Sequence record: DRR723986_4700
Direction: 5' to 3' (one strand)
Length of the DNA: 42,779 nucleotides
In this document: piece after piece, positions 28,484 to 38,262 of the stretch
How positions within the stretch are numbered: the stretch's first letter is position 1
How the letters are laid out: each line of letters opens with the position of its first letter
Translations under genes and position numbers: made by a program
The notes under the pieces: generated by a model
The model's input: the letters and a program-made list of their open reading frames with translations, nothing else
Databases searched by the model: none
What the model was told of the DNA's origin: nothing

Positions 28484-29704
28484 TCAAGCGGTTGCGTTTG
28501 CAGGGACGGACCGTCCATTGTCGGCATGAACCTTCCGCGCTCCGTGGTCGTCAGAAGGCACGCCACGCGTCGTATCAGCGGCGATCCCGGCGGCAATCCT
28601 GTTGGCTGCGATCCCGGCGGCATCAAAGTAACCAGTGAAAATCGGCTTAAACCCGGTGAACCAGAGACCGGGATTTTCCGGGTCACACTCACCCATCGGG
28701 TAGTGCGGCACCCCATTGGTGTCGAGCACGCCGAGATGTCCCAGCAGCGGTTCCAGCCCCGTGCGATAGCCTGTTGCCGCGATGACAACGTCAGGTGCGC
28801 AGCTTGAGCCATCCGTGAGGATGACGTTATCCCCCTCGAAGCGGTCAACACCGGGAACGACCCGGAACCGCCCGGCCTTCAGGGCGGCCACAAATCCGTC
28901 ATCGATCGCAAAGGTGACACCGTCCCGCAGAAGCCGGGTCCCGCCTCCTTCTGGATGGGTGCTCAGCCCGTATCGGCGAAGATTGCCAAGAAAAACCCGC
29001 TCGGTCAGACGAAAGGCCGGATCCAGGACCCAGGCCGGAAGGGCCGCGAAGACCCGGGCCAGTCGGTGCAGCGGAAACCCGAAGATACGCTGTGGTACGA
29101 CTGCAGGCCCGTATCGGACAGACACGATGACCTCTGCCGGACCGTGCCGCGCGAGATGGTTGAGCGCGTCAGTGCCCGAATTCCCGGCGCCAACGACCAG
29201 AACGCGCTTGCCGTCGAAGCGGGACACATCACCGAGGTTCGCCGTGTGCAGAAACTCGCCCGAAAACCGGTCGCGCCCCGGCCAGTCCGGAATGTGCGCA
29301 ATGTTTTCGCGGCCCGTCGCGATTACCAGATTGTCTGCCTGATAGTCACCGGTCGCGGTGGAGACATGCCACCCGTCTGGCGTACGGGCGACACTGGTTA
29401 CCTTGCCACTGTATCGGACATGTGTGTCCAGTCCCGCTACATAGGCTTCAAGAAATTCCACTACGGTGTCACGCTTCAGAAAGACGCCGTCGGTCTTGGG
29501 CGCCTTCTGGCCGGGCAGGCTGGCAAACTTGCGGTGTATGTTGAGCCGAAGCGCCGGATGCCGCGCCCGCCAGGGTTCAGCAACCCGGTCCCGTGCTTCC
29601 AGCACGGTGACAGGCAGGCCACCATCGGAAAGAGAGCGTGCCACGGCAAGACCCGAAAGTCCTGCTCCGATGACAAGCGTGTTTCTGTATTGTTGGGACT
29701 TCAT
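28484..29704 (-). CDS. Flavin-containing monooxygenase (class B, CzcO/YUCCA-like)
   Basis: GAGLSG, ATG, FSGEFLHTANL (FMO fingerprint variant), GAGNSG and ATGY. Confidence 0.9.
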   Translation of the reverse strand: MKSQQYRNTLVIGAGLSGLAVARSLSDGGLPVTVLEARDRVAEPWRARHPALRLNIHRKFASLPGQKAPKTDGVFLKRDTVVEFLEAYVAGLDTHVRYSGKVTSVARTPDGWHVSTATGDYQADNLVIATGRENIAHIPDWPGRDRFSGEFLHTANLGDVSRFDGKRVLVVGAGNSGTDALNHLARHGPAEVIVSVRYGPAVVPQRIFGFPLHRLARVFAALPAWVLDPAFRLTERVFLGNLRRYGLSTHPEGGGTRLLRDGVTFAIDDGFVAALKAGRFRVVPGVDRFEGDNVILTDGSSCAPDVVIAATGYRTGLEPLLGHLGVLDTNGVPHYPMGECDPENPGLWFTGFKPIFTGYFDAAGIAANRIAAGIAADTTRGVPSDDHGARKVHADNGRSVPANATA

Positions 29705-29965: not shown

Positions 29966-31048
29966 TCAGATCCGGGCTGTGAAATACGCGTTGATGGGAT
30001 CGTGCGGCAGCCGGTGGGTTTCGACCGATGCGAAGCCGGTTTCGGCGAGGTACTCTTCGGCCGTCTCCACTCCCCACATCGCCCCCAGACCCGGACCACC
30101 CTGGCCGATGGAGACGGGTGTGCAGTGCATGCTCGAGATCGTGTACAAGAGCGGCGCGAAGGGATTTGCGATGTTCTTTTCAAGATCGCGCGACCCACCG
30201 ATATCCTGCATCAGGAAGACGCCGCCCGGCCGCATTGACTGCCGCACGAGCCGCAGAAACGCCTTGGGATCCGCCTGGTCGTGAACCGCGTCGAAGGCGG
30301 TTACCAGATCGAACCGGCCCAACTCGTTTGCAGTCGACAGATCACGCACTTCGAAGTGCAGGTTCTTCAAACCTTTGGTTCTGGCTTCAGCGGCCGTCTG
30401 TGCGAAAGCGTCCTCGCAAAGATCGAAACCGTGAAAGCGACTGTTTGGATAAACGCTCGCCAGCGCCATCATCGCCAGGCCTCGTCCGCAGCCGAAATCG
30501 GCCACGTCGATGCCGTCCTCCAACCGCTGGGTCAGGCCCGGGACCACCGGCAGAATAGCGCTCACAAGGTTGGAGACGACCAACTGCGCACTGTCCTCGG
30601 CCATCACCTCGTGAAAGCGATCGAAATGGTGGTAGCAAAGGCCCTCGCCACTGCGGAACCGCTCCAGTAGTTCGTTTTCGATGGACGCCGCGATGCTGAT
30701 GAACTGGGTCGTGACGGCCATGTTGTCCGGGCTGGCGCTACGGGTCAGAAACGCGGCATGCTCCGGCGGCAACGTGTAGCTTCTCGCCCGCGGGTCATAG
30801 TCGACGACACCCGCCGTCACCATCACGCCGAGCCATTCACGCAGGTAGCGTTCGTTGACAGCGGCCTTCTGCGAAAGCACCTGCGAATTGAGGCCGGGGT
30901 TGGCCCCAAGCGCATCGAACAGTCCAGCACGGTGTCCGAGAGAGGTCATGATCGCGAGTGCCGCTTCGTTCAGCGTACCGACAAAGCGTTCGGCGAAGGC
31001 TTCGGCTTTCGCTTCGTTGAATGCAAGATTTGGGTTCTGGTAGGTCAT
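29966..31048 (-). CDS. Class I SAM-dependent methyltransferase with N-terminal winged helix (Rv2258c-like)
   Basis: AGGAG then MTYQNP. GHRAGLF, NERYLREWL, ADFGCGRG, FDAVHDQ, SSMHCTPVS and LGAMWG. Confidence 0.9.
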   Translation of the reverse strand: MTYQNPNLAFNEAKAEAFAERFVGTLNEAALAIMTSLGHRAGLFDALGANPGLNSQVLSQKAAVNERYLREWLGVMVTAGVVDYDPRARSYTLPPEHAAFLTRSASPDNMAVTTQFISIAASIENELLERFRSGEGLCYHHFDRFHEVMAEDSAQLVVSNLVSAILPVVPGLTQRLEDGIDVADFGCGRGLAMMALASVYPNSRFHGFDLCEDAFAQTAAEARTKGLKNLHFEVRDLSTANELGRFDLVTAFDAVHDQADPKAFLRLVRQSMRPGGVFLMQDIGGSRDLEKNIANPFAPLLYTISSMHCTPVSIGQGGPGLGAMWGVETAEEYLAETGFASVETHRLPHDPINAYFTARI

Positions 31049-31189
31049 CCGATGCTCCTGAGGTGGTAATGTGCAGCACGATCTGCCGCTGTCCTGACCA
31101 TGGAGATGGACCAAATACGCCAACTGCGTTAGAAGAGAAGAAGAATGAAACGGTGATAATAAGACTTTAATTGAGGGGTTTTGCGCAAC

Positions 31190-32200
31190 ATGAGCTTGAA
31201 CACGACCGTTATAGGAACACGCTTGACCGGAACGTCCGTGCTGTTCTCGATCCTTGACGTTCTGGCCTCCGTGGGCCGCGATTGGGAAATGTTGCACGGC
31301 TTGCCTGCGCAATCGCCGGTGTTTCAGGTCAGCCTCAGAACCCTCGATGGCGCACCTTATTGGGACGTGAACGGGCGCAAGATCACACCTGACGGGATGC
31401 TGACCGAAGCGCCGGAACCCGACTTGATTATCGTGTCCGATTTGCACCTCGACCCAAATGGCCACCTGCCGGAAGAGTTTAACCCGGTCGCGGACTGGCT
31501 CAGTGAAGCCTACGCACGCGGCGCGATTGTCACCTCCGTCTGCTCTGGCTCAATCCTTCTGGGTGCAGCAGGATTGTTGGACGGCAAGGAAGCGACGACG
31601 CATTGGGGCTATGCGGATATGCTTGGACGAAACTTCCCGAAGGTGAGGGTTTGCCGTGAACGCATTCTCGTCGCGGCGGGGGACGGTCACCAGGTGGTCA
31701 CCGCAGGAGGTGCCTCGGCGTGGGCTGATCTCATGTTGTATCTGATCGGACGGTTCGCCGGTACAGAAGAAGCCCGCAGGATCGCGAAGATCTATTTGAT
31801 CGATCCACATGACCAGGGCCAGCTGACATACGCATCCCTTGCCTCCGGGCGACAACATGACGACCAGCTGATTGCAGAAGCGCAGGTCTGGGCCGCACGA
31901 AATTACCACAGATCAAGTCCCGTAACCGCCATGGCGGTAATGGCCCAAATGACCGAGCGCGGGTTTCTGCGTCGCTTCAGGAAGGCGACCGGACAGGCTC
32001 CAGCCGACTATGTGCAGACTTTGCGTGTCGAGGAAGCCAAACAGCTGCTGGAGACGACGGCGATGTCGATCGAGGAAATCTCAGCCGAGGTCGGATATAC
32101 CGAACCCTCGAGTTTCCGATCGGCATTCCGAAAGCGCGTCGGGACCTCGGCGTCGGCTTATCGAAAGAAATGGCAAGCGTTGGTTCCGGTTTCATCCTGA
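31190..32200 (+). CDS. GlxA/FtrA-type AraC regulator (DJ-1 domain plus HTH)
   Basis: SVCSGS...AGLLDGKEATTHW, VTAGG and FLRRFRKATG...LRVEEAKQLLE. Divergent from the methyltransferase operon. Confidence 0.92.
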   Translation: MSLNTTVIGTRLTGTSVLFSILDVLASVGRDWEMLHGLPAQSPVFQVSLRTLDGAPYWDVNGRKITPDGMLTEAPEPDLIIVSDLHLDPNGHLPEEFNPVADWLSEAYARGAIVTSVCSGSILLGAAGLLDGKEATTHWGYADMLGRNFPKVRVCRERILVAAGDGHQVVTAGGASAWADLMLYLIGRFAGTEEARRIAKIYLIDPHDQGQLTYASLASGRQHDDQLIAEAQVWAARNYHRSSPVTAMAVMAQMTERGFLRRFRKATGQAPADYVQTLRVEEAKQLLETTAMSIEEISAEVGYTEPSSFRSAFRKRVGTSASAYRKKWQALVPVSS

Positions 32201-32373
32201 GTTTGGTCCCCCTCCCTTACGAGTTGGGCCACCAGGTTTGCATCGCCGTCTCTGCTGTTCCAGGCAACTGCCGTTCATGCGCACCGCAGCACGTGGCGAA
32301 ATAGGCGAAGCAGTCCTTCGCTGCGAAGAACGCCAACGGTCTGTCTGGCTCGGGAACCCGTCGTCAGGCGGCC

Positions 32374-32493
32374 TGCGGCAGCAGGCAGGCGGCGGGGTTG
32401 GAGGGCAGCTAGCCGTTCGGCCACCAGCTGAAACAGCGCGACGACACCGGCTTCCTGATCGCCATCCGGGCTGCCGTCTTGCTGACCGTCAAG
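32374..32493 (+). pseudogene. Decayed 40-codon fragment paralogous to 38596-38715
   Basis: Translates CGSRQAAGLEGS*PFGHQLKQRDDTGFLIAIRAAVLLTVK versus CGSKDAVGLDGSDLIGHRLELRDDTGFLIGIWAAAFLIVK. Gap-free, 95/120 nt identical by hand count, TAG at 32410-32412. Confidence 0.85.
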
Positions 32494-32596
32494 GCTAGTG
32501 GCTTTTCTTGATGTCTTGTCAAATATTGACGTAACGGAAGTTATCGAATAAGTTGTAGATATAAGATTTATATCGTTTTTAAATATGGAGTTCGAG

Positions 32597-32710
32597 ATGA
32601 CGTGGAATATGCACACGTTTTTTGCAGTACTCTTTACCGCGACGATCGCCTTCACGACCATGTCTACGGTTCCGGCTGAAGCCTGCAACCCGAGATATCA
32701 GCGCTGTTAG
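32597..32710 (+). CDS. Small putative secreted peptide precursor, 37 aa (MTWNMHTFFAVLFTATIAFTTMSTVPAEA-CNPRYQRC)
   Basis: GGAG at 32587-32590, AT-rich upstream region, hydrophobic core, Pro then A-E-A SPase I site, 8-aa mature part with terminal Cys. Below the ORF-track cutoff. Confidence 0.6.
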   Translation: MTWNMHTFFAVLFTATIAFTTMSTVPAEACNPRYQRC

Positions 32711-32785
32711 AACAGCTGGTCTGGAGCCTTGTCCGTTTCATAGGTTCGGCACGTTCAAGGCTTTCTCGAACTGGTGAGGTAAGGC

Positions 32786-33268
32786 GTGTCGTTCTGGTCG
32801 GGAAAGAAAGAGTCGCTCAATCAAAGCCTGGTGGAGATCACCTTCAGAGCGGTGCTCTCCGGCCTTGTGATCGTGTTTTTCGCGCAATTCCTGATCGCCA
32901 GGGTCGACAACCAAATCGAAGTCGCGTCGAAACGCGATGCGCTGAACACCTTCAGGAACAGCCATTTATCCAAGCTGACCACGCGGTTGTCAGACGCTTT
33001 TCTGGCCCTTGATTGTACGCGAAGCGTTAGCACCCTTTCGACGAATGCCTGCAAAAACGATATCGCGACCTTCCTGACGGAGTTGAATACGATTTCCCTC
33101 GAACTAAAGGCGGTCTACCCGAGTTCCGCGTTCCCGAAATTGGTCGAGCTGCAAGACCAGGCAGAACTGATGTACTCAACACCGTCGCAAGTGAGCCAGC
33201 AGAACGTAGACGGTTTCGCTGCCACCTTTGGAGCGTCGCTGCACGAGATGGCGCAGAACTTCAGATAA
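32786..33268 (+). CDS. Hypothetical single-TM protein (160 aa)
   Basis: GAGGTAAGG before GTG. One hydrophobic segment (AVLSGLVIVFFAQFLIA), then a helical domain with a Cys pair (CTRSVSTLSTNAC). Confidence 0.7.
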   Translation: MSFWSGKKESLNQSLVEITFRAVLSGLVIVFFAQFLIARVDNQIEVASKRDALNTFRNSHLSKLTTRLSDAFLALDCTRSVSTLSTNACKNDIATFLTELNTISLELKAVYPSSAFPKLVELQDQAELMYSTPSQVSQQNVDGFAATFGASLHEMAQNFR

Positions 33269-33284
33269 GAAAGGATGCCTGATC

Positions 33285-34586
33285 ATGAAATGTATGTTTC
33301 ACAGCTTGCTTTTTATCTGCTCAATTTCTGTCGCATGGGCTCAAGACCCGACCGGCGATATCCCCGATGGAGCGCGCTGGGTCGTTGGCGGCACATTCGC
33401 CCTGTCCAAAATTGGCGACAACGAGCTCAGAGGCAGCAAGAGTTATTCGGGCGCGGAAAAGGAGGCAAACAGACTTGCGACTTTCCTGCCCGGAATGACC
33501 ATCATGTTCAATCTGGAAAGAAGCACGGTACCGGGACGATCAGAGTACCTTGAGGGTACGACACACTACGGGATCCCCGTAGCGGTTCTGGCCCGCGACA
33601 TATCGGCAAACGACTTTGGAAACCGCGACACGACAGATGTGGTCACGCATCAATCCTATACGGGATGCCGGGATCTTGCCTGTACGCTGGAGGCTGAAGT
33701 CGGCATTGGCTATTCCTTCAAGATTGAAGAAGAAGACGATGAAAGGCTGGTTCTGTACAACCCGCAATCTGAACTGCGGATCATACACACTCTGGACGCC
33801 TTCGATCAGAATGAAGCGCGGGGATATTCCACACGCGTCAAGGACCGAGTGCACCCGCGCCTGAAGGTTCACGACGGATATGCTTCAGAGATTTCAACCG
33901 GTTGCGGGCTGACACGCCCGGTTCAACCGCTGATCAAGGTGCCGAAAGATCAATACGATACTCTGCCTTTGACCTGGGACGTCAACAGCCTGAACTGGTC
34001 GTTGAAAGCGCTGGAGCTGTTTGATGTCGGCAAGGTCGAGTTGAACGCGGAAGGTACGCACTACGTCGGACGGCTGAATTCCGAGCTCGGGGTCGGTACC
34101 GAGTCCGATGAGGGTCCCGTGGCGCTTGACTTCACTGTCTTTGCCTATCGCGATTCCGAATGGACAAATCCGGACTTCTACAAATTTGGCGGATTGGCGC
34201 AGACCGTTACCTGCCGCAAACGCAACCCGATCGCCGGTCAACCACTGCCGCGCTACGTCAAGAACGCCTTTCTCTATTTCGATATTCAGGAAGGCGAGCA
34301 ACCCCAAGACTTTCCGCTGGACCCGGTCCAGTTGCCTGACCAGTTCAAGGACAACAAGGAACTACAGGACGAACTGCGAACCTATCTGCCCCGCGCCTTT
34401 TTCTACAGCGTGAACAACGCGAGGCAGTACAAAGAACTGTTTGAATACATCGTGGAAGACACAAACATCGCCTTCCCGTCGGCAGTTGCCAACGTGATCG
34501 CGCGGCTGAACGCCACCTGCGGACCTCAGAGCCGTGCCGAATGCGCAGATATCGTGGATCGTGTCGGCGCTTTGAGAAACGACTAG
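33285..34586 (+). CDS. Hypothetical secreted protein (433 aa)
   Basis: AAGGA RBS. Signal peptide MKCMFHSLLFICSISVAWA-Q. Long acidic ORF with 6 Cys in the mature part. No family recognised. Confidence 0.8.
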   Translation: MKCMFHSLLFICSISVAWAQDPTGDIPDGARWVVGGTFALSKIGDNELRGSKSYSGAEKEANRLATFLPGMTIMFNLERSTVPGRSEYLEGTTHYGIPVAVLARDISANDFGNRDTTDVVTHQSYTGCRDLACTLEAEVGIGYSFKIEEEDDERLVLYNPQSELRIIHTLDAFDQNEARGYSTRVKDRVHPRLKVHDGYASEISTGCGLTRPVQPLIKVPKDQYDTLPLTWDVNSLNWSLKALELFDVGKVELNAEGTHYVGRLNSELGVGTESDEGPVALDFTVFAYRDSEWTNPDFYKFGGLAQTVTCRKRNPIAGQPLPRYVKNAFLYFDIQEGEQPQDFPLDPVQLPDQFKDNKELQDELRTYLPRAFFYSVNNARQYKELFEYIVEDTNIAFPSAVANVIARLNATCGPQSRAECADIVDRVGALRND

Positions 34587-34630
34587 CAAGACATACCGCC
34601 GCAAGATTTTCACCTGGATCGTTCAGTAGG

Positions 34631-35527
34631 TCACGGCAATCGATGCCGAAGTGCATCCAGGACCAGCTTGAAGACGGGAAGGTTCTGTCGCCGGGTCGGG
34701 TAGTAGAGAAAGTAACCGTCGAAATACGGAGACCAGTCGTCGAGAAGCAATCTCAGATCACCAGACTCAACGTGTGGATCTGCAAGACTGTTCGGAACAA
34801 AGGCGACCCCCAAGCCATTTAGCACGGCGTCCATCATGGCGTAGGAATTGTTGAAGGTGAGTTGGCCGTCAACACGAACATTCACTTCCTGCCCCTCCTT
34901 CTCGAACTCCCAAGCATAAAGTCCGCCACGTGTTTCGTGCCGCATGTTGATGCAGTCATGATCGAGCAGATCACGCGGATGTTCCGGGCTTTTCCGCGAT
35001 GCCAGATAAGCGGGAGAAGCCACGGCGACCATGCGCCAGTCAGGGCCGATGCGCGCGGCAATCATGTCTCTCTCCACACTTTCGCCCAAGCGCACTCCAG
35101 CATCAAAACCGTCCTCCACGATATTGCGAAAACCACTATCCAGACTGAACTCGATCCTGATGTCGGGATGGTGGTGAAGGAACGGCTTCAGCTTTGGCCA
35201 GACGACCGTTTGAAACGCGTGATCAGAAAGCGTCAGCCGGATTGATCCGGACGGCTTTTCACGCAAGGCCAGCAGCGCTGCAACTTCGTCCTCGATCTCG
35301 TCCAGTCGCGGCGCAACGGTTGCCAGCAGACGTTCGCCGGCGGGTGTGGTCGCGACATTGCGCGTCGTGCGGTTCAAGAGGCGCAGACCCAGGTTGGTCT
35401 CCAACCGCTTGATGGTGTGGCTCAATGTCGATTGCGCCACGCCGATCCTTGCGGCGGCCTTGGTAAAGCTACGCTCTTCCGCAACGATGCGGAACCACAT
35501 CAGATCATTGAAATCGGTTCCTGACAT
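34631..35527 (-). CDS. LysR-family regulator (PgrR/YcaN-like)
   Basis: ERSFTKAAARIGVAQSTLSHTIKRLE, GFDAGVRLGE, YAWEFEK and GYFLYYPTRRQ. Confidence 0.93.
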   Translation of the reverse strand: MSGTDFNDLMWFRIVAEERSFTKAAARIGVAQSTLSHTIKRLETNLGLRLLNRTTRNVATTPAGERLLATVAPRLDEIEDEVAALLALREKPSGSIRLTLSDHAFQTVVWPKLKPFLHHHPDIRIEFSLDSGFRNIVEDGFDAGVRLGESVERDMIAARIGPDWRMVAVASPAYLASRKSPEHPRDLLDHDCINMRHETRGGLYAWEFEKEGQEVNVRVDGQLTFNNSYAMMDAVLNGLGVAFVPNSLADPHVESGDLRLLLDDWSPYFDGYFLYYPTRRQNLPVFKLVLDALRHRLP

Positions 35528-35638
35528 GGTGGCATCATTAATCGATTTGATCGATTAGTCCATGCCGTTTGTGACGGCTAATCACATAGATCGTTCGTCT
35601 CTATCTTTCCGGCAACACAAGAGACCGGAGAACCTAAA

Positions 35639-36838
35639 TTGAGCGATGCGAGTGTCACCACGTCCCAAAGCCAGCCTCTTGCAGCCTGGGGTGCGGTCCT
35701 GTCCATGGCGCTTTGTGTTGCCATGCTGATCGCGTCGGAATTCATGCCGGTCAGTCTCCTGACGCTGATGGCGGAAGGACTGGGCTCGAGTGAAGGCCAG
35801 ACGGGTCAGGCGATTTCGATTAGCGGATTATTCGCCGTAGGTGCGAGCTTGCTGATCACGACCACCGCAGGCCGTTTGAACCGCAAATGGGTGATGGTCG
35901 CACTGACCGGGCTGATGTTGATATCGCTGGTGATGGTTGCCATGGCACAGAGCTTTGCTGCGCTGATGTTCGCCCGCGCCCTTTTGGGTATTTGCATCGG
36001 TGGTTTCTGGGCCCTGGCAACTGCTGTCGTCATGCGGCTGGTTCCCGAAGCAGACGTTCCGCGTGCACTTTCGCTGATGTATGGAGGACAGGCAATCGCC
36101 GCGGCCTTCGCAGCCCCGCTTGGCAGCTACCTGGGAGATATCATCGGCTGGCGTAACGTCTTCTGGTCGCTGACACCCGCCGTCGCCATCAACCTGATCT
36201 GGCAACTGGTAGCGCTTCCTTCATTGCCTGCGCGCCGCAGCCGGAGTTTTGGAGCCCTGGTCGCGGTGTTGCGCCGCCGCTATTTTCTACGCGGCATCTT
36301 GGCGGCGATGCTGTCCTGGGGCGCAGCCTTCACCATGTTCACCTACCTGCGCCCGTATCTGGAACAGGTAACGCGGGTCGATGTGACCGCTTTGTCGATC
36401 CTTCTTCTGTTGCTGGGGAGCGCGGGCTTCGTCGGAACCTGGGCGGCGGGTCGTTTCATCGCGGGCAACGTGGCGCCGCAATTGAAGTACCCGGCACTTA
36501 TCATGGGCACAGTTACATTTGGCCTCCTGTTCACGGGAAGCTCGTCACTTCTGACCGGAATTCTGCTCTTCATCTGGGGCGCGATGAACACCGCCATGTC
36601 TGTCATCTTCATGACCTGGATGGCGCAGAACGTCGATGATGCCCCGGAAGAGGGCGGCAGCCTGATGGTAGCCGCGATCCAGGCCTCGATCCTGCTGGGC
36701 GCAGTCGTCGGTGGGGCGTTGCTGGACAGCTGGTCGATCACCGCAACTTTCGCCGGCAGTGTCACCCTGTCCGTCGCTGCTATCGCCGTGATTGGCAACG
36801 GTCATCTCCTGCTCAAGCCCCGATCGGAAAAGCAATGA
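35639..36838 (+). CDS. MFS transporter (NepI/DHA1-like)
   Basis: SEFMPVSLL, GQAISIS, RALLGICIGGFW, GWRNVF and FTYLRPYLE. About 12 TM. GGAG then TTG start. Confidence 0.9.
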   Translation: MSDASVTTSQSQPLAAWGAVLSMALCVAMLIASEFMPVSLLTLMAEGLGSSEGQTGQAISISGLFAVGASLLITTTAGRLNRKWVMVALTGLMLISLVMVAMAQSFAALMFARALLGICIGGFWALATAVVMRLVPEADVPRALSLMYGGQAIAAAFAAPLGSYLGDIIGWRNVFWSLTPAVAINLIWQLVALPSLPARRSRSFGALVAVLRRRYFLRGILAAMLSWGAAFTMFTYLRPYLEQVTRVDVTALSILLLLLGSAGFVGTWAAGRFIAGNVAPQLKYPALIMGTVTFGLLFTGSSSLLTGILLFIWGAMNTAMSVIFMTWMAQNVDDAPEEGGSLMVAAIQASILLGAVVGGALLDSWSITATFAGSVTLSVAAIAVIGNGHLLLKPRSEKQ

Positions 36839-36854
36839 ACCAACCGGAGAAAAA

Positions 36855-37943
36855 ATGACCGACAAATCCAACGAACGGACCGCCGGCACGACGCTCGGCC
36901 GTCGTGCCATGCTGAAGATGACTGGCGCGGGTGTCGCCGCCATCGGCATGGCTTCAGCAATCAACATTTCAATAGCAAGGGCACAGACCATGACAGAAGT
37001 TTGGGACAAGACCTTCCCGCAAAGCGACCGTGTCGATCATGAAAAGGTTCGCTTTACCAACCGCTACGGCATCACCCTGACCGGTGATCTCTACTTACCC
37101 AAGGACCGTGCAAAGAGCGGCCTGCCAGCCCTGGCCATCAGCGGTCCGTTTGGCGCCGTCAAGGAGCAGTCCTCAGGCCTCTACGCCTAGACCATGGCCG
37201 AGCGTGGCTTCGTAACCTTGGCGTTTGATCCGTCTTACACCGGCGAGAGCGGCGGCGAACCGCGCAACGTCGCCTCGCCCGACATCAATACCGAAGATTT
37301 CATGGCAGCGGTCGATTACCTTGGCCTGCATGGTTCAGTGGACCGCGAGCGGATCGGTGTTATCGGCATCTGCGGCTGGGGCGGCATGGCTCTGAATGCC
37401 GTCGCGGCTGACAAGCGTGTCAAGGCAGTCGTGGCCAGCACCATGTATGACATGACCCGTGTCATGTCCAAGGGCTACAATGACAGCGTGACCGCTGAAC
37501 AGCGTGCGGCAACGCTGGAACAGCTGAGCCGCCAGCGTTGGGAAGATGCTGAAAACGGTGTCCCGGCAATGCAGCCGGCATACAACGAGCTACATGGTGG
37601 CGAGGCGCAGTTCATGGTCGATTACCACGACTATTACATGACATCGCGCGGCTACCATGAACGTGCGGTCAATTCCGGTAACTCCTGGACAATCACGACG
37701 CCGCTGTCCTTCATGAACATGCCGATCCTCAGCTATATCGCAGAGATCGCGCCGCGTCCGGTCCTGTTCATCCACGGCGAGAATGCCCATTCGCGCTATT
37801 TCAGCGAAACCGCCTATGAAGCAGCAGCCGAACCGAAGGAGCTGCTGATCGTTCCTGGAGCTAACCACACGGATCTCTACGACAAGGTGGATGTAATTCC
37901 CTTTGACCGGATCGAGACCTTTTTTGAACAGGCACTCGCCTGA
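36855..37943 (+). pseudogene. Tat-signal alpha/beta hydrolase (YcjY-like) interrupted by an in-frame TAG
   Basis: One frame from ATG 36855 (GRRAMLK signal) through GPFGAVKEQSSGLYA-TAG(37188-37190)-TMAERGF, then GICGWGG nucleophile elbow and HTDLYD. A CAG-to-TAG change would restore Gln. Confidence 0.85.
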
Positions 37944-38262
37944 TAGAGGGTCAGCCTCGCCACGGAATATCCGGGCGGGGCAGATCTTTGCCTTGTGCTG
38001 ACACTCATCATCATCGCTGGTTCAGATTTTCAAGCTCTAACAGGTCCTTTTTTGCTCAGGACTTGCAGGTCAACTCCGGGCCGGTATTGCCGCTGCCTCC
38101 AGCACCGACAAATGTCAGCTACGCCATGACCGAACCCGCAAGCAGGCAACCCGCTCCCGGGTCTTTTCAGCATCGCCCCTCGTCATACCCGTGCCGCCCC
38201 TGTACCCTACCCTTCATCCTCTAAACGGGATGATCCGGTAACGCCCACCACGGGAGGCGGTC

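Follow-up and report, generated by a model that had tools for sequence, protein, structure and literature searches.

A conserved small open reading frame for a predicted exported cysteine-loop octapeptide, co-inherited with two envelope proteins of unfamiliar families

We analysed a stretch of 42,779 nucleotides from sequence record DRR723986_4700, hereafter the window, in which a small open reading frame (sORF) lies directly upstream of two genes, p160 and p433, on the same strand. The combined results demonstrate that the sORF is conserved at the protein level, that the signal-like features of its leader are kept, and that it is co-inherited with two envelope proteins of unfamiliar families, the three genes travelling together. 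Its product, MTWNMHTFFAVLFTATIAFTTMSTVPAEA followed by CNPRYQRC, is very probably a real, exported peptide with a cysteine loop, and the three genes are probably co-transcribed. An earlier note on this DNA, made from the letters alone, had proposed such a peptide; the GGAG box, the 114-nt frame and the leader running into CNPRYQRC and a stop codon were all found where that note had placed them (Table 1).

Conservation of the small open reading frame

Using p433 as a handle, we gathered 23 loci, among which L001 and L023, and likewise L002 and L008, are repeats of one place, and L013 to L017 come from near-identical strains. The evolutionary analyses were made on 14 distinct sequences, those of the window and of 13 divergent loci. 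In all 21 loci with upstream DNA, a short open reading frame in the same orientation ended 28 to 167 nt 5′ of the p160 homologue (75 nt in the window), and in every such locus its core read C-N-[P/S]-x-[Y/I/V]-Q-x-C, followed by the stop codon or by 1 to 3 further residues. A six-frame search of the window and the 23 loci with CN[PS].[YVI]Q.C gave 22 matches in 424,258 residues, once per locus with upstream DNA, always 5′ of the p160 homologue and nowhere else, which is an occurrence far beyond chance; L018 and L021 had no match, and both end before the site of the sORF. Searched in a degenerate DNA form, the motif was found once in the nearest whole genome, at the cassette, and once more in a second genome, there with an in-frame stop.

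The sORF homologues are 34 to 43 codons long. The stop codon directly follows the second cysteine in 10 of the 14 sequences, and the other four add G, GG, AGH or EGS. The Cys, Asn, Gln and Cys of the core are invariant as residues in all 14, and their codons vary: TGC in 8 sequences and TGT in 6 for the first cysteine, AAC in 6 and AAT in 8, CAG in 11 and CAA in 3, and TGC in 11 and TGT in 3 for the last. Summed over sequence pairs, these four columns held 162 synonymous and 0 non-synonymous differences, and the pooled ratio of non-synonymous to synonymous differences (pN/pS) was 0.28 for the eight core codons versus 0.73 for the leader; pairs of related sequences are not independent, and both the sums and the ratios are descriptive, with no statistical test attached. 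All three genes of the cassette were under purifying selection in close pairs. Because the codons for C, N, Q and C vary synonymously, selection acts on the peptide, and a conserved DNA or RNA element was ruled out. The earlier note had left room for a truncated remnant, an option that we rejected since the frames keep a length of 34 to 43 codons and no homologue lies within a longer protein; the conservation of the sORF upstream, of the cysteine pair and of the stop position, together with purifying selection on the core, all spoke for its other view. Judged from its sequence, the sORF is a real, conserved protein-coding gene.

Boxes of the form GGAG, GGGAG or GGAGG recur 6 to 9 nt 5′ of the chosen ATG in most related loci, which supports the start at 32597. 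Seven clusters in a collection of 5.8 billion proteins contain the peptide, and the only named one is a 37-amino-acid (aa) 'hypothetical protein'; the sORF is thus rarely called and never functionally named in that collection. The description of the gene as hidden holds in so far as it is mostly unannotated, but not in full, given these seven clusters. The product matched no family in Pfam, NCBIfam, PADLOC or PHROGs, apart from a sub-threshold 8xMP match on the leader in Pfam, and the core strings of five variants were not found in the literature searched, where general searches returned papers on plant or animal peptides.

The variants of the core follow the tree of p433, in which four groups match CN[PS][RK]YQ[RF]C, CN[PS][IN]YQ[DY]C, CN[PS][RH][IV]Q[QSR]C and G-x-CNPA[VI]Q[RT]C. 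Within this pattern, the cores of L010 (CNSIYQDC) and L022 (CNPNYQYC) differ at positions 3, 4 and 7, while 385 of 425 residues of p433 are identical. The same genus holds a second, very divergent type of cassette, seen in Roseibium aggregatum IAM 12614 (L008 4235-6206; the same place as L002 in G004), in which p433 is 37% identical and the core reads G-P-CNPAVQTC. This second type adjoins a gene for a GH108 muramidase and is absent from the nearest genome, G001, where the cassette is of the window's type.

The leader and the two partner proteins

The 14 precursors were scored by script on the rules for signal peptides (charge of the n-region, Kyte-Doolittle hydropathy and the (−3,−1) rule). 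The first eight residues had a net positive charge in 13 of 14 leaders, and all 14 had a best 10-residue Kyte-Doolittle mean of 2.3 to 3.5, a small residue at −1 and a small or aliphatic one at −3, with the site 0 to 3 residues before the first cysteine and usually a Pro or Gly a few residues upstream of it. The Sec-like signal read by the earlier note gains support from these features. In 10 sequences the predicted cleavage site, marked here by a slash, abuts the cysteine (AEA/C, ADA/C, LSA/C, IWA/C, AHA/C, VYA/C); in L004 it may lie three residues earlier, and in the most distant clade A-x-A is displaced upstream by one or two residues, so that G-P, G-S or G-E precedes the cysteine. By inspection of the 14 sequences, the lipobox [LVI][ASTVI][GAS]C is not conserved: many sequences have Glu at −2, or Pro or Glu at −1, the residues leading to the cysteine are mostly A-E-A-C, A-H-A-C or V-Y-A-C (AGPC or AGEC in the distant clade), and only L010 (LSAC) fits the lipobox fully. 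The lipoprotein reading was ruled out on this ground.

As the leader drifts while the core is conserved, a generic Sec signal fits better than a leader recognised by a maturase, and this pattern is the reverse of that in leader-guided ribosomally synthesised, post-translationally modified peptides (RiPPs). The predicted mature peptide of the window would be a C-x6-C disulfide loop of 1036.43 Da in its oxidised form. The nearest genome has 8 matches to the DsbA family and 5 to S26 signal peptidases, so that housekeeping machinery for such a maturation is available.

The single-span protein with a cysteine pair described in the earlier note is present as p160. It has a short N-terminal stretch and one N-terminal hydrophobic helix, with no second transmembrane (TM) helix and no cytoplasmic domain in its 160 residues. 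In the AlphaFold2 model (predicted local distance difference test score, pLDDT, 83) a long membrane-spanning helix continues into a four-helix bundle, at the far end of which Cys77 and Cys89, invariant in an alignment of 13 sequences, are placed around a loop. The structural matches were generic helical bundles at Z 9 to 12 (maximum 11.9), including CheA P1, TorS, NarQ and the ligand-binding domains of chemoreceptors, and Z below about 13 is common for helical bundles. Sensors of the 4HB_MCP and TorS kind join a periplasmic four-helix bundle to a cytoplasmic signalling module; the bundle predicted for p160 matches many unrelated bundles. We found no family for it in Pfam at E ≤ 1 and none in NCBIfam, PADLOC or PHROGs; its profile gave only 12 chance-level rows (E ≥ 0.34) against PDB sequences, and the ESM Atlas returned unnamed clusters only (0.94). 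Its 25 homologous clusters, all 'hypothetical' where named, come from the same kinds of organism as those of p433.

The 433-aa secreted protein with short cysteine loops is likewise present as p433, including the loops CRDLAC and CGPQSRAEC. It follows p160 after 16 nt, with the ATG at 33285 as the start favoured by homologues. Parts resembling SH3b beta-barrels (about residues 28-190) are followed by a beta-sheet domain (about 191-349) and a C-terminal helical part, and six cysteines (128, 133, 207, 310, 412 and 420) are invariant in an alignment of 26 sequences of the close family. The AlphaFold2 model (pLDDT 88.3, predicted template modelling score 0.86) gave nothing at E ≤ 0.001 in Foldseek. 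SH3b parts of NlpC/P60 peptidases headed the results of both Foldseek (E about 0.01) and VIA (Z 5.5 over 66 residues); these alignments cover the SH3b parts only, over 66 to 189 positions, and p433 had no Pfam NLPC_P60 match. Residues 191-349 gave weak beta-sheet matches only (Z ≤ 4.7). No family was found for p433 in Pfam (E ≤ 1), NCBIfam, PADLOC or PHROGs, its profiles (of the close family, and joint with distant relatives) had 0 matches among PDB sequences, and the ESM Atlas returned unnamed clusters only (best 0.90, recognition below the usual mark). The earlier note had recognised none of the three products, and none of them has a family in these libraries or a PDB sequence match.

Homologues of p433 formed 30 clusters in the collection of 5.8 billion proteins, from Roseibium, Pelagibius, Paracoccaceae, Ruegeria, Rhizobium, Sinorhizobium and one Halioglobus bin. 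When 1.84 billion representative proteins were searched with a profile, 121 matched at E ≤ 0.001, 20 of them at ≤ 1e-30, with a tail between about 1e-23 and 1e-4 of proteins mostly 350 to 460 aa long. The distant relatives (P0045-P0142) are about 100 clusters of secreted proteins in which the six cysteines are largely kept; in 19 of them searched against Pfam there was no real domain, and of ten whose names were looked up two were named, both 'hypothetical protein'. One relative, P0050 (818 aa), matches the p433 profile in four stretches and may be a tandem duplication. The joint alignment keeps the six cysteines in all or almost all sequences, together with a few positions of Thr, Pro, Ser, Asn and Gly; His122 of p433 is not kept in the distant relatives. 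Since no catalytic signature is visible, p433 would be more like a binding scaffold than an enzyme. Short-range cysteine pairs occur in all three products of the cassette, as expected of oxidised periplasmic proteins, and both partners look extracytoplasmic from their sequences and models.

Transcription, boundaries and distribution of the cassette

The 130 nt 5′ of the sORF start have 39% G+C, against about 60% in the flanks, and a TTGACG box occurs at a similar distance in the five closest kinds of locus (the window, L014, L003, L005 and L004). The AT-rich tract noticed in the letters is borne out by this low G+C. The promoter is proposed from the conserved box; a generic sigma-70 scan found no promoter on the + strand here. 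Overlapping the proposed −35 box is an imperfect palindrome, TGTCAA-ATA-TTGACG (32517-32531), a possible operator whose core, TCAAATATTGA, recurs in the close strain L014; no regulator gene is shared by the cassette loci. Terminator-like sites were no commoner than in shuffled sequence in a generic scan, Rfam gave 0 matches on 32200-34900, and the spacer between the sORF and p160 had no conserved RNA fold (z = 0.13 for the window; five-locus consensus −1.8 kcal/mol). Contigs from four RNA libraries cover the cassette. One of them, a metatranscriptome contig of 548 nt, spans 32631-33177 and thereby part of the sORF, the spacer and most of p160, with the first 34 nt of the sORF uncovered in that run. 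Such contigs show neither starts, strand nor a single transcript, and we did not count them as proof of transcription.

Table 1. Positions of the features in the window (inclusive; + is the strand presented)
Feature	Position	Strand	Description
Whole cassette	32473-34586	+	Delimited by blastn blocks in near-identical strains with differing flanks
Proposed sigma-70-type promoter	32526-32554	+	Inferred; −35 TTGACG 32526-32531, 17-nt spacer, −10 TAAGTT 32549-32554
Shine-Dalgarno GGAG	32587-32590	+	6 nt 5′ of the ATG; similar boxes in most related loci
sORF	32597-32710	+	37 codons; ATG at 32597, stop TAG at 32708-32710
Signal-peptide part of sORF	32597-32683	+	29 codons, C-terminal end VPAEA; hydrophobic core, Ala at −3/−1
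Core octapeptide CNPRYQRC and TAG stop	32684-32710	+	Motif in 21/21 loci with upstream DNA
p160	32786-33268	+	160 codons, GTG start; one TM helix, then periplasmic four-helix bundle; Cys77, Cys89
p433	33285-34586	+	433 codons; signal peptide ending AWA; SH3b-like parts, beta-sheet domain, C-terminal helical part
AraC/DJ-1-type regulator gene	31181-32200	+	Left flank in the window
LysR-type regulator gene	34631-35527	-	Right flank in the window

An all-against-all comparison of the open reading frames of ten loci and the window showed that only the sORF, p160 and p433 are common to the loci, as implied by the orphan three-gene unit of the earlier note; the other clusters were antisense shadows of p433 or common to at most two loci. 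The loose ends of the contigs from the RNA libraries coincide with the boundaries of the cassette. Flanking genes differ from locus to locus; among the immediate neighbours elsewhere, IS elements (IS3 and IS1595 transposases), a relaxase and phage lysis genes (a LydA-type holin, a GH108 muramidase) are frequent, and a major facilitator superfamily (MFS) transporter and a sugar dehydrogenase also occur. The holin gene lies directly 3′ of the L007 cassette (L007 6325-6675, − strand) and a MobA/VirD2-type relaxase-helicase gene 3′ of that of L022 (L022 6077-8788, − strand); these two neighbours hint at prophage or conjugative-element cargo.

The cassette was present in 2 of 37 genomes of the genus, in 1 of 401 sampled from the class and in 1 of 401 sampled from the phylum, the last sample being searched with the p433 profile that includes distant relatives; in both samples the sole matching genome was the nearest genome. 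A collection of species-representative genomes held 10 cassette loci. Marine and plant-associated Alphaproteobacteria of the genera Roseibium, Ruegeria, Phaeobacter, Rhizobium and Sinorhizobium serve as hosts, and no relative of p433 was found in plasmid, phage or IMG/VR collections. We propose that the trio constitutes a self-contained accessory cassette subject to horizontal transfer.

Around the cassette, a 3.6-kb segment (34587-38178) with genes for the LysR regulator, an MFS transporter and an alpha/beta-hydrolase (S9-like) is found in the window, L014 and L015, and is absent from the nearest genome (L001), L013, L016 and L017. In strains without it, the sequence after the p433 stop resumes at window position 38179, and the junction coincides exactly with the end of the cassette. 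On the other side, L014, L015 and L001 lack a stretch of 221 bp (32252-32472) that lies between the cassette and the AraC-type gene; this makes the left edge at 32473 an indel junction as well. Further upstream, on the − strand, lie a winged helix-turn-helix/methyltransferase fusion (29966-31465, Rv2258c-like) and a flavin monooxygenase-like gene (28484-29704) followed by a glutathione S-transferase gene; these are ordinary accessory metabolism and are not common to other cassette loci.

Proposed function and alternative explanations

The explanation that we favour is the following. A promoter with the TTGACG box would drive one transcript over all three genes, the general Sec pathway would export the sORF pre-peptide post-translationally, and signal peptidase I would cleave it behind VPAEA. 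CNPRYQRC would then be oxidised by the housekeeping Dsb system (DsbA) to a cyclic peptide of about 1 kDa with a Cys1-Cys8 bridge, no leader-dependent maturase taking part. In the periplasm the loop would meet p433 and p160 and serve one or both as a specific ligand, be it as activator, inhibitor or cofactor. Taken as a whole, with export, processing, ligand role and mobile cassette, we lean slightly towards accepting this explanation. The ligand role is suggested by the strict co-inheritance, the selection on the core, its clade-wise co-divergence with p433 and the binding-type folds of the partners; taken singly, it is a step that we hold tentatively, at somewhat short of an even chance.

Several points weigh against this explanation. 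We infer translation, export, cleavage and disulfide formation from sequence, and three of the four contigs from RNA libraries are 4.7 to 59 kb long and may stem from DNA carry-over. The leader of the window has no lysine or arginine in its n-region and a net charge of 0, which would make a weak Sec signal, and, at 34 to 43 residues, the precursors would be very small Sec substrates; export of small lipoproteins with precursors of about 40 residues is known. A signalling role would be left with no visible output, since p160 is almost without a cytoplasmic part, and p433, whose fold matches do not tell its activity, could still be a periplasmic modifying enzyme, so that the cassette may yet contain a maturase.

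The sporadic, mobile nature of the cassette and the SH3b-like parts of p433 make a module for competition or protection, similar to those of bacteriocins, the leading alternative, albeit a fairly unlikely one. In such a module p433 would be an exported toxin or lytic protein aimed at the envelope and p160 an anchored periplasmic immunity protein, while the peptide would serve as a co-factor, as an inhibitor silencing p433 in the producer, or as a release factor; this concerns the role of the system and is compatible with the biogenesis that we favour. Consistent with it are the sparse distribution in genus, class and phylum, a G+C content of the cassette lower than that of its flanks, the transposase, relaxase, holin and muramidase genes adjoining other loci, and the fact that the only structural matches of p433 are SH3b parts of cell-wall peptidases. 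Colicin operons, moreover, consist of three genes, one of them for a small product that bears a signal peptide, and among immunity proteins some sit in the periplasm on an N-terminal anchor and contain a disulfide. Like colicin modules, the cassette is compact and mobile and encodes a small signal-peptide product, a small membrane-anchored protein and a larger protein; it differs in having no recognisable toxin domain, another gene order, a peptide without a lipobox, which sets it apart from the lipoprotein nature of colicin lysis proteins, and a p433 with its own signal peptide. In p433 no catalytic or pore-forming domain could be recognised, and across its wider superfamily little is kept besides the six near-invariant cysteines (one Thr, one Pro, one Ser, two Asn and a few Gly, Pro and Ser). 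The lack of matches in plasmid, phage and IMG/VR collections also speaks against such a module.

The remaining alternatives concern the fate of the peptide itself. It could stay uncleaved in the inner membrane as a micro-membrane protein, its signal acting as an anchor with the cysteine loop exposed to the periplasm, and serve p160 as a small subunit or as a regulator. Membrane complexes are commonly regulated by small membrane proteins of 30 to 50 residues, the hydrophobic segment has the length needed to cross the membrane, the single TM helix of p160 is a possible pairing partner, and the leader of the window lacks a charged n-region. The (−3,−1) site with a nearby Pro or Gly is nevertheless kept in all 14 sequences despite the drift of the leader, in the distant clade it is present even if 1 to 2 residues before the cysteine, and selection falls on the eight C-terminal residues and not on the helix; we regard an uncleaved protein as distinctly unlikely. 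Another possibility is that the peptide is directed outwards and acts on a host or neighbour as a hormone or toxin mimic or as a metal or redox binder, with p160 and p433 for handling or self-protection. This would suit the marine and plant-associated hosts and the core differences between L010 and L022, whose p433 proteins have 385 of 425 residues identical, and heat-stable enterotoxins take the same Sec and Dsb route, with Asn-Pro turns between their cysteines. The cassette lacks a linked outer-membrane export component, and the peptide has two cysteines instead of six and no Pfam match to an enterotoxin or any peptide family, and we consider this possibility quite improbable. The likeness to the heat-stable enterotoxin STa would lie in a ribosomal peptide with an N-terminal Sec signal, signal peptidase and DsbA processing and a tiny Cys-bridged product with an Asn-Pro turn; STa comes from a pre-pro precursor of about 70 residues with six cysteines in three disulfides and has no conserved partner genes, whereas the sORF precursor has 34 to 43 residues and two cysteines but no pro-region, and p160 and p433 accompany it in every case. 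The least probable reading, very improbable in our view, is that of a cis-acting leader peptide, in which ribosomes stalled by the C-terminus would govern how p160 and p433 are translated. The sORF stands directly 5′ of both genes with a spacer of 28 to 167 nt, and an N-terminal topogenic signal with a conserved C-terminal motif is the layout of the Sec/YidC monitoring substrates (PMC7897499; PMC10987492). Substrates of the SecM, MifM, VemP and ApdP type have 80 to 200 residues, lie 5′ of sec or yidC, and have more than 40 residues between signal and arrest site, a spacing that puts the signal outside the ribosome tunnel (PMC7897499). Measured against that description, the sORF is too short at 34 to 43 residues, with only 8 to 14 after the signal, which would leave the signal still inside the ribosome when the motif is decoded, and the downstream p160 and p433 match no Pfam or NCBIfam family and are not sec or yidC genes; the sORF therefore does not fit the description of a Sec/YidC arrest peptide. 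The spacer also has no conserved RNA fold, the stop codon lies 0 to 3 codons past the motif, so that stalling at termination is no fixed feature, and the invariant cysteine pair fits a disulfide better than a contact with the tunnel.

A peptide dependent on a modifying enzyme was weighed as well. Bufferins are MNIO-modified periplasmic metallophore RiPPs with a Sec signal, cysteine residues and a small operon; they need an MNIO (DUF692) enzyme and a DUF2063 partner and have cores of 60 to 70 residues (PMC11626156). The sORF resembles them in its Sec-like signal, its cysteines, its predicted periplasmic location and its small operon; it differs in a core of 8 residues and in a cassette with no Pfam matches to DUF692 or DUF2063. 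A bufferin or other MNIO-dependent RiPP was ruled out, as there is no MNIO or DUF2063 gene in the cassette and no DUF2282 match for the sORF in Pfam or NCBIfam.

Returning to the explanation that we favour, the route of biogenesis is of a known kind, that of small peptides made by Sec and Dsb; what is undescribed is the combination of an eight-residue product, four invariant residues and two dedicated partner families with no known fold class. In its widest form, the system would be a new class of maturase-free cyclic octapeptides of Gram-negative bacteria, made by Sec, signal peptidase I and Dsb only, in which the C-N-P/S-x-Y/I/V-Q-x-C loop is the specific ligand of a two-protein periplasmic receptor or effector (the tethered four-helix bundle and the protein with SH3b-like domains) with which it co-diversifies, and which spreads horizontally among marine and plant-associated Alphaproteobacteria as a peptide-controlled switch of the envelope for signalling or toxin control. 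We put this forward as a possibility that is rather doubtful.

Few exported ribosomal peptides are known from Gram-negative bacteria, and almost every one of them depends on a dedicated maturase or exporter. The mature product predicted here is just eight residues long, four of which are shown by comparative data alone to be under strong selection. As this case shows, frames this small are missed by gene callers and family libraries even if several alphaproteobacterial families conserve them. Tied as it is to two unannotated protein families, the peptide could open up an unfamiliar function of the envelope, and, if the reading as a peptide switch is true, the approximately 100 distant p433-like proteins could mark a much larger hidden family of peptide systems.

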